Assembly (NCBI GenBank): GCA_964016885.1
Contig: OZ024741.1
Span: 95,480,001 to 95,544,000 of the forward strand
Length of the DNA stretch: 64,000 bases
Source: Eledone cirrhosa
Lineage: Eukaryota
Reading direction: 5' to 3'
Below the pieces are notes generated by a model. It was given only the letters and a program-made list of their open reading frames with translations, was not told the DNA's origin and made no database searches. The position numbers and the translations under genes were made by a program. This document shows positions 42,262 through 42,604 of the stretch, piece after piece; position 1 is the stretch's first letter, and every line of letters begins with the position of its first letter.

Positions 42262-42604
42262 CATCATCATCATTTTACGTCCGCTTTTCCCTGCTTGCAA
42301 GGGTGGGATGGGAACTGATTCTGGCTTGATTTTTACAGCTGGATGCCCTTCCTAACACCAACCTCATTTACAGTGAGTATTGGGTGCTTTTTTGCTGTGG
42401 CACCTCCACGTCCACTTTACAGTGGAATGATAGGGACCCCAGTCCCCATCATCTCACCTCCACAGCTGAGCAAACTGGAGCAATGTGAAACAAAGTGTCC
42501 TGCTCAAGGAAACAACGCATCAGACCGGGTGATATGTTGTTTCCTTGAGCAAGATACCCCACCTCACATTGCTCCAGTTTACTCAGCTGCAGAAATGAGA
42601 TGAT
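42260..42604 (-). mobile_element. Family B SINE whose tRNA head is replaced by an inverted copy of its core (75-bp-arm hairpin)
   Basis: 42260-42522 matches ~27080-27340; 42530-42604 is an imperfect reverse complement of 42448-42522. Confidence 0.85.

Follow-up and report, generated by a model that had tools for sequence, protein, structure and literature searches.

Can A-to-I edits made in an RNA become letters of an animal's nuclear genome? A 64,000-nt stretch of contig C2 of Eledone cirrhosa (the window, numbered from its first letter) raises this question: a preliminary description had seen in it a SINE hairpin with T>C changes in both arms, and had proposed that a hairpin RNA was hyper-edited by ADAR, reverse-transcribed and integrated.

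A probable edited copy of a distant locus
The hairpin lies in an island of 661 nt (41944-42604) between an assembly gap of 200 N (41744-41943), which hides the 3' end of the sequence described here, and a (TA)n tract with TACA variants (42604-43973). A further (TA)n tract extends past the gap (38151-41743). Over its full stretch the island is a 90.3% colinear match to G000:C25:2981389-2982058 (locus L002, 1499-2168), and we refer to the two as the copy and the parent. The minus strand of 41944-42604 is the sense strand of the putative RNA, and changes are given on that strand unless stated otherwise.

Read in this direction, the copy starts at the (TA)n junction, which has no counterpart at that point in the parent, with a SINE fold-back hairpin (42447-42604) that carries 13 copy-derived A>G changes in both arms and forms G.U pairs. 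The hairpin (42448-42604) folds near-perfectly on the minus strand and with many mismatches on the plus strand, and its folding energy is -134.4 kcal/mol in the parent, -114.8 for the copy's minus strand and -94.2 for its plus strand. The 3' part of the same SINE (42262-42412), largely unpaired and ending in (ATG)n, served as an internal control. It is followed by a second hairpin from a different repeat family (42054-42261), identified by a self-match and polarised against 18 aligned family copies, with 12 copy-derived A>G changes (42225, 42214, 42199, 42191, 42185, 42117, 42115, 42112, 42106, 42105, 42103 and 42098), and by an AT-rich arm (41951-42053) with ten more, identified by a match to its pairing partner and by the fold of the parent. 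The final seven bases (41944-41950) match the head of the SINE consensus and are the first seven of the parent's second SINE, a full-length element of the same sense; here the copy meets the gap. The SINE is a short dispersed element with many copies and a simple-repeat tail. It appears to us to have an A- and B-box-like look and is presumably related to the octopus CORE SINEs, and ARAGORN predicted no tRNA in L002.

The parent locus and its predicted fold
A genome search with the hairpin returned 80 matches, the best of them on C25, so that the unedited parent which the preliminary description had asked for was found. The non-SINE half of the copy has a full-length match at C25 only (92%; next best 79%, with 40 of 933 candidates scored). 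In the computed fold of the parent, an outer stem pairs about 1362-1466 with 2050-2155 of L002, the SINE hairpin is extended to 1467-1690, a second hairpin occupies 1851-2058, and 1691-1850 is largely unpaired. The start of the copy, at L002 1499, falls inside the outer stem, which begins near 1362, and is thus a 5' truncation. The AT-rich arm pairs with L002 1362-1466, a stretch that the parent has further upstream and the copy lacks. The partners of this arm and of site 42447 are found only in the parent, before the point at which the copy starts, so the edited molecule was longer than the copy.

Neither the window nor the 10 kb on either side of it showed further sequence colinear with the parent. 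A SINE at 37962-38147 was considered as the lost second SINE of the parent and rejected, as it is unedited and lacks that copy's private letters. Twenty-three frames were scanned for a host gene of the parent and gave only two weak Pfam rows, below the cut-off, of which the vigilin-like one reads as chance. Across four related loci, Rfam gave 75 weak rows, none at a family's gathering score.

Hairpins of the SINE, head-to-head or fold-back and without editing, recur at many loci of G000, on C25, C26, C17, C1 (337.7 Mb), C19, C23, C3, C12 and C6 (L002-L018). Their turning points are similar, and they amount to a standing supply of perfect dsRNA.

A>G changes are confined to paired regions and avoid a 5' G
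Copy and parent differ by 56 substitutions on the minus strand, of which 40 are A>G. Before polarisation, the stems contain 37 A>G vs 1 T>C, along with two C>T. G>A accounts for six of the 56 differences, five of them in the unpaired tail, and the copy does not show the sense-strand G>A pattern of APOBEC editing. Differences were polarised by setting them against other copies of the same repeats. By this measure 35 A>G changes arose in the copy: 13 in the SINE stem, 12 in the second hairpin and 10 in the AT-rich arm, where site 42036 is weakly polarised (11 vs 9). The remaining five apparent A>G changes, including all three in the tail, happened on the parent's side. Copy-derived changes thus affect 35 of 165 stem A's (about 21%) vs none of 44 A's in the unpaired tail (p=1.6e-4), which bears out the earlier statement that the unpaired part of the SINE shows no such bias.

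The SINE sites are those originally described. All seven plus-strand T>C changes of the left arm (42447, 42457, 42458, 42461, 42471, 42491 and 42500) and all six of the right arm (42558, 42559, 42560, 42562, 42563 and 42590) are present, and they are private to the copy rather than a family trait, each site being A on the minus strand in 57-64 of 59-65 copies from 64 other loci. The change at 42447 is real as well, but its placement outside the stem was mistaken, as the site is paired in the parent RNA. The chance of 13 changes among 55 A's is about 4e-15 at the background of unedited copies and 2e-7 even at 4% per A. The preliminary description missed the parent and the 22 further copy-derived A>G changes in 41944-42261.

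Neighbouring bases also follow a pattern. Each of the 13 changed A's in the SINE has a 5' T or A, as had been claimed, and over the whole copy none of 32 A's after G was changed vs 35 of 133 others (p=2.3e-4), with 33 of the 35 changes preceded by T or A. On the 3' side the picture is mixed: the window copy shows A 15/49, G 7/29, C 5/26 and T 10/63, and other copies pooled show G 45/121, C 25/81, T 20/81 and A 21/129, which is inconsistent with, and only partly matches, the preference for a 3' A given for invertebrates in PMC5625713.

Outside editing, 11 changes are private to the copy and ten to the parent, the copy keeping the family letter at those ten sites. Ten of the copy's own 11 lie in the SINE half (42309-42555), compared with one in the remaining 318 nt. 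One guess is that those in the SINE half came from other SINE copies by conversion. The A>G changes were probably made on a transcript of the parent, and on one strand throughout. The earlier proposal that a hairpin RNA was edited, reverse-transcribed and integrated is supported and can be refined: from the sequence, the edited RNA would not be the short RNA of the SINE itself but a longer read-through transcript that combines three stems with sequence from outside the SINE.

The same mark recurs at other loci
The one-strand mark, for which a genome scan had been proposed, was found in A>G clusters at nine other loci. A SINE consensus of 318 nt was built from 29 loci, and the first look covered 5,236 candidates. 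The unedited background (36 alignments, 29 loci, 10,679 nt) holds 116 changes, namely 27 A>G, 22 C>T, 17 T>C, 13 G>A and the rest other types; the background loci are best matches to an edited query, so their A>G is overstated if anything. Against this, 27 of 29 changes are A>G in a copy on C919, 31 of 37 at C1:205.5 Mb and 13 of 19 at C1:42.2 Mb. These three, and an edited hairpin on C10, came from the first search together with a two-edit sense motif. That motif has eight matches, of which five were counted as hypermutated (the window copy, C919, two on C1 and C10); the others were not counted, with A>G making up 2/8 (L084), 4/7 (L086) and 6/17 (L087) of their changes.

A three-edit tail motif has six matches, compared with 68,300 for its unedited form. 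Two were already known and four were new, and all six are hypermutated beyond the motif itself vs none of the four matches to a three-G>A control motif, which have 5-8 G>A among 12-23 differences, three in each being demanded by the motif. In the four new copies A>G makes up 17/39, 27/46, 44/54 and 97/104 of the differences. The reference in each case was a column consensus in which families are mixed, and for the last two copies some of the columns are microsatellite. A two-edit antisense 16-mer has 36 matches, one already known, and among the other 35 a single copy is hypermutated (L126, on C8; of its 31 changes 27 are A>G when read on the antisense strand). Most of the rest look like an older subfamily that carries those letters, and two gave no alignment. 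A three-edit antisense 31-mer has no match genome-wide. The six sense matches and the absence of an antisense counterpart only suggest a sense bias, since the motifs differ in length.

There are thus eight further hyper-A>G repeats besides the C10 copy, belonging to three families. Pooled over five other loci of the SINE family, with motif-required sites removed, A's changed in 10/93 cases after G, 22/43 after T, 41/128 after A and 28/138 after C, that is, 10/93 after G vs 91/309 otherwise. The process recurs in this genome, though rarely. We take 6 in 68,300 as a floor, and estimate that the edited rate would be near one in 1,000-2,000 if the motif catches 10-15% of edited copies.

Some features near these loci were observed in passing. 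A repeat of about 600 nt starts just 3' of four of the nine edited copies (L137 5556-6127, L138 5565-6117, L139 5167-5657 and L156 5156-5287) and runs in the direction of the edited strand; five distinct unedited loci matched it among 158 overlapping loci. It may be a carrier or a template-switch partner, or it may simply favour TA tracts. An inverted SINE 1.1 kb from a heavily edited one (L082 2785-3030) is unedited, with four changes, so a single edited RNA was not the source of both. The TA tracts beside the copies in L095, L096 and L126 are rich in G on the edited strand, which would fit editing of (UA)n RNA as well, with slippage as the alternative. In the window, the kilobase TA tracts (21412-25315, 38151-41743 and 42604-43973) have interruptions that are almost all G or almost all C on a given strand, in repeating blocks. 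We considered whether these tracts were edited (UA)n RNA and did not count them as editing; C-only and G-only tracts exist, but the spacings recur in blocks, which fits slippage.

A second parent-copy pair points to LINE reverse transcription
The C10 hairpin has one full-length match in the genome, a parent on C23. The two loci share 743 nt, comprising a TA run, a flank and the hairpin up to the last tail repeat of the SINE, and then diverge. All 13 A>G differences from C23 to C10 lie in the 269-nt stem, and one of them is a parent change, so that after polarisation 12 of 76 stem A's are changed vs none of 175 outside. The C10 copy also retains 10 nt lost from the C23 parent, with two more A>G relative to the consensus. 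Priming by a LINE reverse transcriptase would be expected to give such a copy, whose 3' end falls at the SINE tail and which includes some upstream flank. No target-site duplication was evident by eye at C10, and none was seen for the window copy, which ends in a gap and in (TA)n.

Candidate machinery is present in the genome. Two LINE fragments of L091 have RVT_1 matches, and the first then carries the shared tail motif; we take the LINE to belong to the RTE clade. An RTE-clade LINE shows signs of recent activity in octopuses, according to PMC9115989.

Our best reading, to which we give a probability of roughly 0.85, is ADAR hyper-editing followed by LINE-driven retro-copying. A read-through transcript of the C25 repeat cluster would fold into three long stems, the fold being computed and transcription presumed. 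ADAR, the enzyme to which the signature points, would turn about 21% of the adenosines in these stems into inosine. Copying of at least 661 nt by a LINE reverse transcriptase would follow, most likely primed on the tail of the parent's second SINE, with inosine read as G; this priming site is suggested by the C10 copy, while the window copy, its truncation and its TA junction are directly observed. Reverse transcription would halt inside the outer stem and the cDNA would join a (TA)n tract on C2, after which parent and copy would gather ordinary mutations separately. Such separate mutations in both point to passage through the germline. The copy is a fossil of edited RNA with no evident function.

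Sequencing runs and alternative explanations
The copy is known from the assembly, and four sequencing runs listed under one organism code (X1-X4), none of them recorded as RNA, were examined as contigs, which drop variants. X1 has 88 million letters; X2-X4 are larger runs from one other sample, perhaps another animal. The runs contain 0.25-0.33 of the sampled copy words (0.25-0.28 in X2-X4), shares that alone say little because 0.31 of the copy's 31-mers occur at other loci. In X1, one 151-nt record with a depth of 2 spans 42029-42179 with 12 differences, ten of them listed as plus-strand A>G. At 42112, 42115 and 42117 the record lacks T, which means that at least eight of the ten copy-derived letters in its span are kept. 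None of the ten plus-strand changes follows a G, and A's opposite C were changed in 6/10 cases vs 4/29 for those opposite T (p=0.009). ADAR favours A:C mismatches. X1 is probably RNA, given how large the run is and the pattern seen. It is hard to see how one molecule could carry both sets of changes if the first were not already in its template, and the copy appears to have been transcribed and edited again on the other strand.

Elsewhere in the window, an uninterrupted frame of 2,569 codons (7716-15422, plus strand) encodes C2H2 zinc fingers and is conserved across molluscs. Residues 180-700 of its product (7767-15422) are 93% identical to an Octopus bimaculoides protein, which places the animal among the octopods, a comparison with a protein atlas gave generic zinc-finger clusters only, and the frame has the same orientation as the X1 record 27 kb downstream. 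On the minus strand, broken frames at 43974-45210 presumably resemble a Tc1/mariner transposase; Pfam gave no match for the two frames tested.

The runs bear on whether the editing signature is real but the window copy is not germline DNA, being instead an assembly tip (a chimeric or cDNA-derived read) or a rare somatic insertion. Sequencing errors have placed clusters of like mismatches in reference data before, as PMC2873906 describes. The copy sits at a contig end beside the 200-N gap and is flanked by long TA tracts, and X2-X4 have no copy-specific contig and word shares at background level. Where rows are listed for these runs, depth is 0 at 42101 in X2 and X3 and the letter is T at 42115 and 42117 in X2 and X4, although contigs drop variants and this result is not proof of absence. 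The mismatch clusters of the earlier paper were reportedly trace artefacts of the G>A type. The 21 non-editing differences between copy and parent, which run in both directions, are too many for a parent transcript unless the other allele is very divergent, and the X1 record combines the copy's letters with new changes on the opposite strand. In addition, the nine other loci have no N in the 9.9 kb around each and eight are on chromosome-scale contigs. We therefore consider a non-germline origin improbable.

A mutator acting on DNA during a templated insertion, either an error-prone polymerase such as Pol eta or a deaminase working on folded ssDNA or on the DNA strand of an RNA:DNA hybrid, is very improbable. 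Pol eta produces A>G at WA, a motif that the 33 of 35 changes after T or A would also fit, and TA tracts are break-prone; the lack of a visible target-site duplication is likewise in keeping with such an event. Against it stand the strict restriction to paired regions in two independent pairs, the change of 21% of A's with almost no other type of change, and the change of 28 of 138 A's after C in the other copies. The C10 copy ends at a SINE tail, as retroposition predicts, and the same kind of change occurs in the transcript-like molecule of X1. We know of no deaminase that acts on DNA:DNA stems.

Ordinary mutation with selection or gene conversion keeping G.U-compatible changes in a functional hairpin RNA is hardly credible: every change does preserve minus-strand pairing, but selection cannot account for a rate of 35 changes where other divergence is about 1.7%, C>T changes, of which the stems have just two, could also make G.U pairs, the edited AT-rich arm has no partner in the copy, and Rfam found no gathering-score match at the related loci.

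Relation to known systems
The writing of ADAR edits into DNA by a reverse transcriptase, as preferred here, is known for retroviruses and, as far as our literature search shows, new for SINE/LINE-type copies in an animal genome. The search, which covered mainly open-access journals, turned up no paper in which SINE or LINE retrocopies edited by ADAR are described together with their parent in an animal genome. Edited RNA is written back into DNA by retroprocessing in plant mitochondria, and edited mRNA is retroposed in kinetoplastids. The organellar cases involve C-to-U or U-indel editing and replace the parent gene, whereas here the change is nuclear and A-to-I, with a new copy elsewhere.

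ADAR-linked hyperediting has been recorded in avian retroviruses (review PMC8586724). There, as here, A-to-I edited RNA is made into DNA by a reverse transcriptase and leaves one-strand A>G clusters; in the present case the RNA would be a host read-through transcript of a SINE and other repeats, mobilised in trans, and several copies stand in an animal reference genome with an unedited parent identified. APOBEC G>A "DNA editing" fixed in vertebrate LTR retrotransposons was described by Knisbacher and Levanon (PMC4866542), whose screen used LTR elements and a G>A filter and reported 19 invertebrates devoid of DNA editing. The two systems share strand-biased deaminase footprints in genomic retroelements, found against a parent or consensus, and differ in that APOBEC makes G>A on single-stranded cDNA, whereas here A>G is limited to dsRNA stems.

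A-to-I hyper-editing of repeat-derived dsRNA occurs across metazoans and is extreme in octopus, with depletion of upstream G (Porath et al., PMC5625713). Our copies share the dense A>G clusters, inverted repeats and upstream-G depletion, but in that study the changes are in RNA only, and here they stand in the genome. The 5' G bias of ADAR is also structural (PMC11334849). In HeLa cells ADAR1 restricts L1 without detected editing (PMC5224506), and the unedited state of L1 RNA there counts against our preferred reading. G alleles at edited sites have been treated as point mutations under selection (PMC7186786). Finally, a hypothesis paper proposes deaminase-driven, reverse-transcriptase-mediated transfer from soma to germline (PMC12941027). 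That model shares with ours the passage of A-to-I edits to A-to-G in DNA via reverse transcription, but it is targeted, adaptive and acts at the same locus, whereas the repeat copies described here are untargeted and silent on soma-to-germline transfer and on adaptation.

Implications for coleoid genomes
The loci provide direct sequence-level cases of A-to-I edits turned into nuclear DNA, in the animal group that edits most heavily. The copies seen are rare, non-coding repeats with no function shown. Each is a dated record of ADAR site, density and preference in cells that were probably germline, and under the preferred reading inosine-rich dsRNA is able to reach a LINE reverse transcriptase. 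They are to A>G what the APOBEC footprint is to G>A, in a group that a G>A-only screen scored as free of such footprints. There is also a practical consequence: reads derived from these copies will look "hyper-edited" when mapped to the parent, and the number of editing calls can be inflated. How often RNA edits become heritable, and whether retrogenes hold pre-edited recoding sites, can now be counted. For coleoids as a whole, we lean slightly toward the view that ADAR editing feeds the germline genome as a regular mutational route, in which LINE-copied, hyper-edited read-through RNAs would leave each genome with tens to hundreds of repeats rich in A>G, some with unique flanks and some re-transcribed and re-edited; such a route could hard-wire recoding edits in retrogenes.
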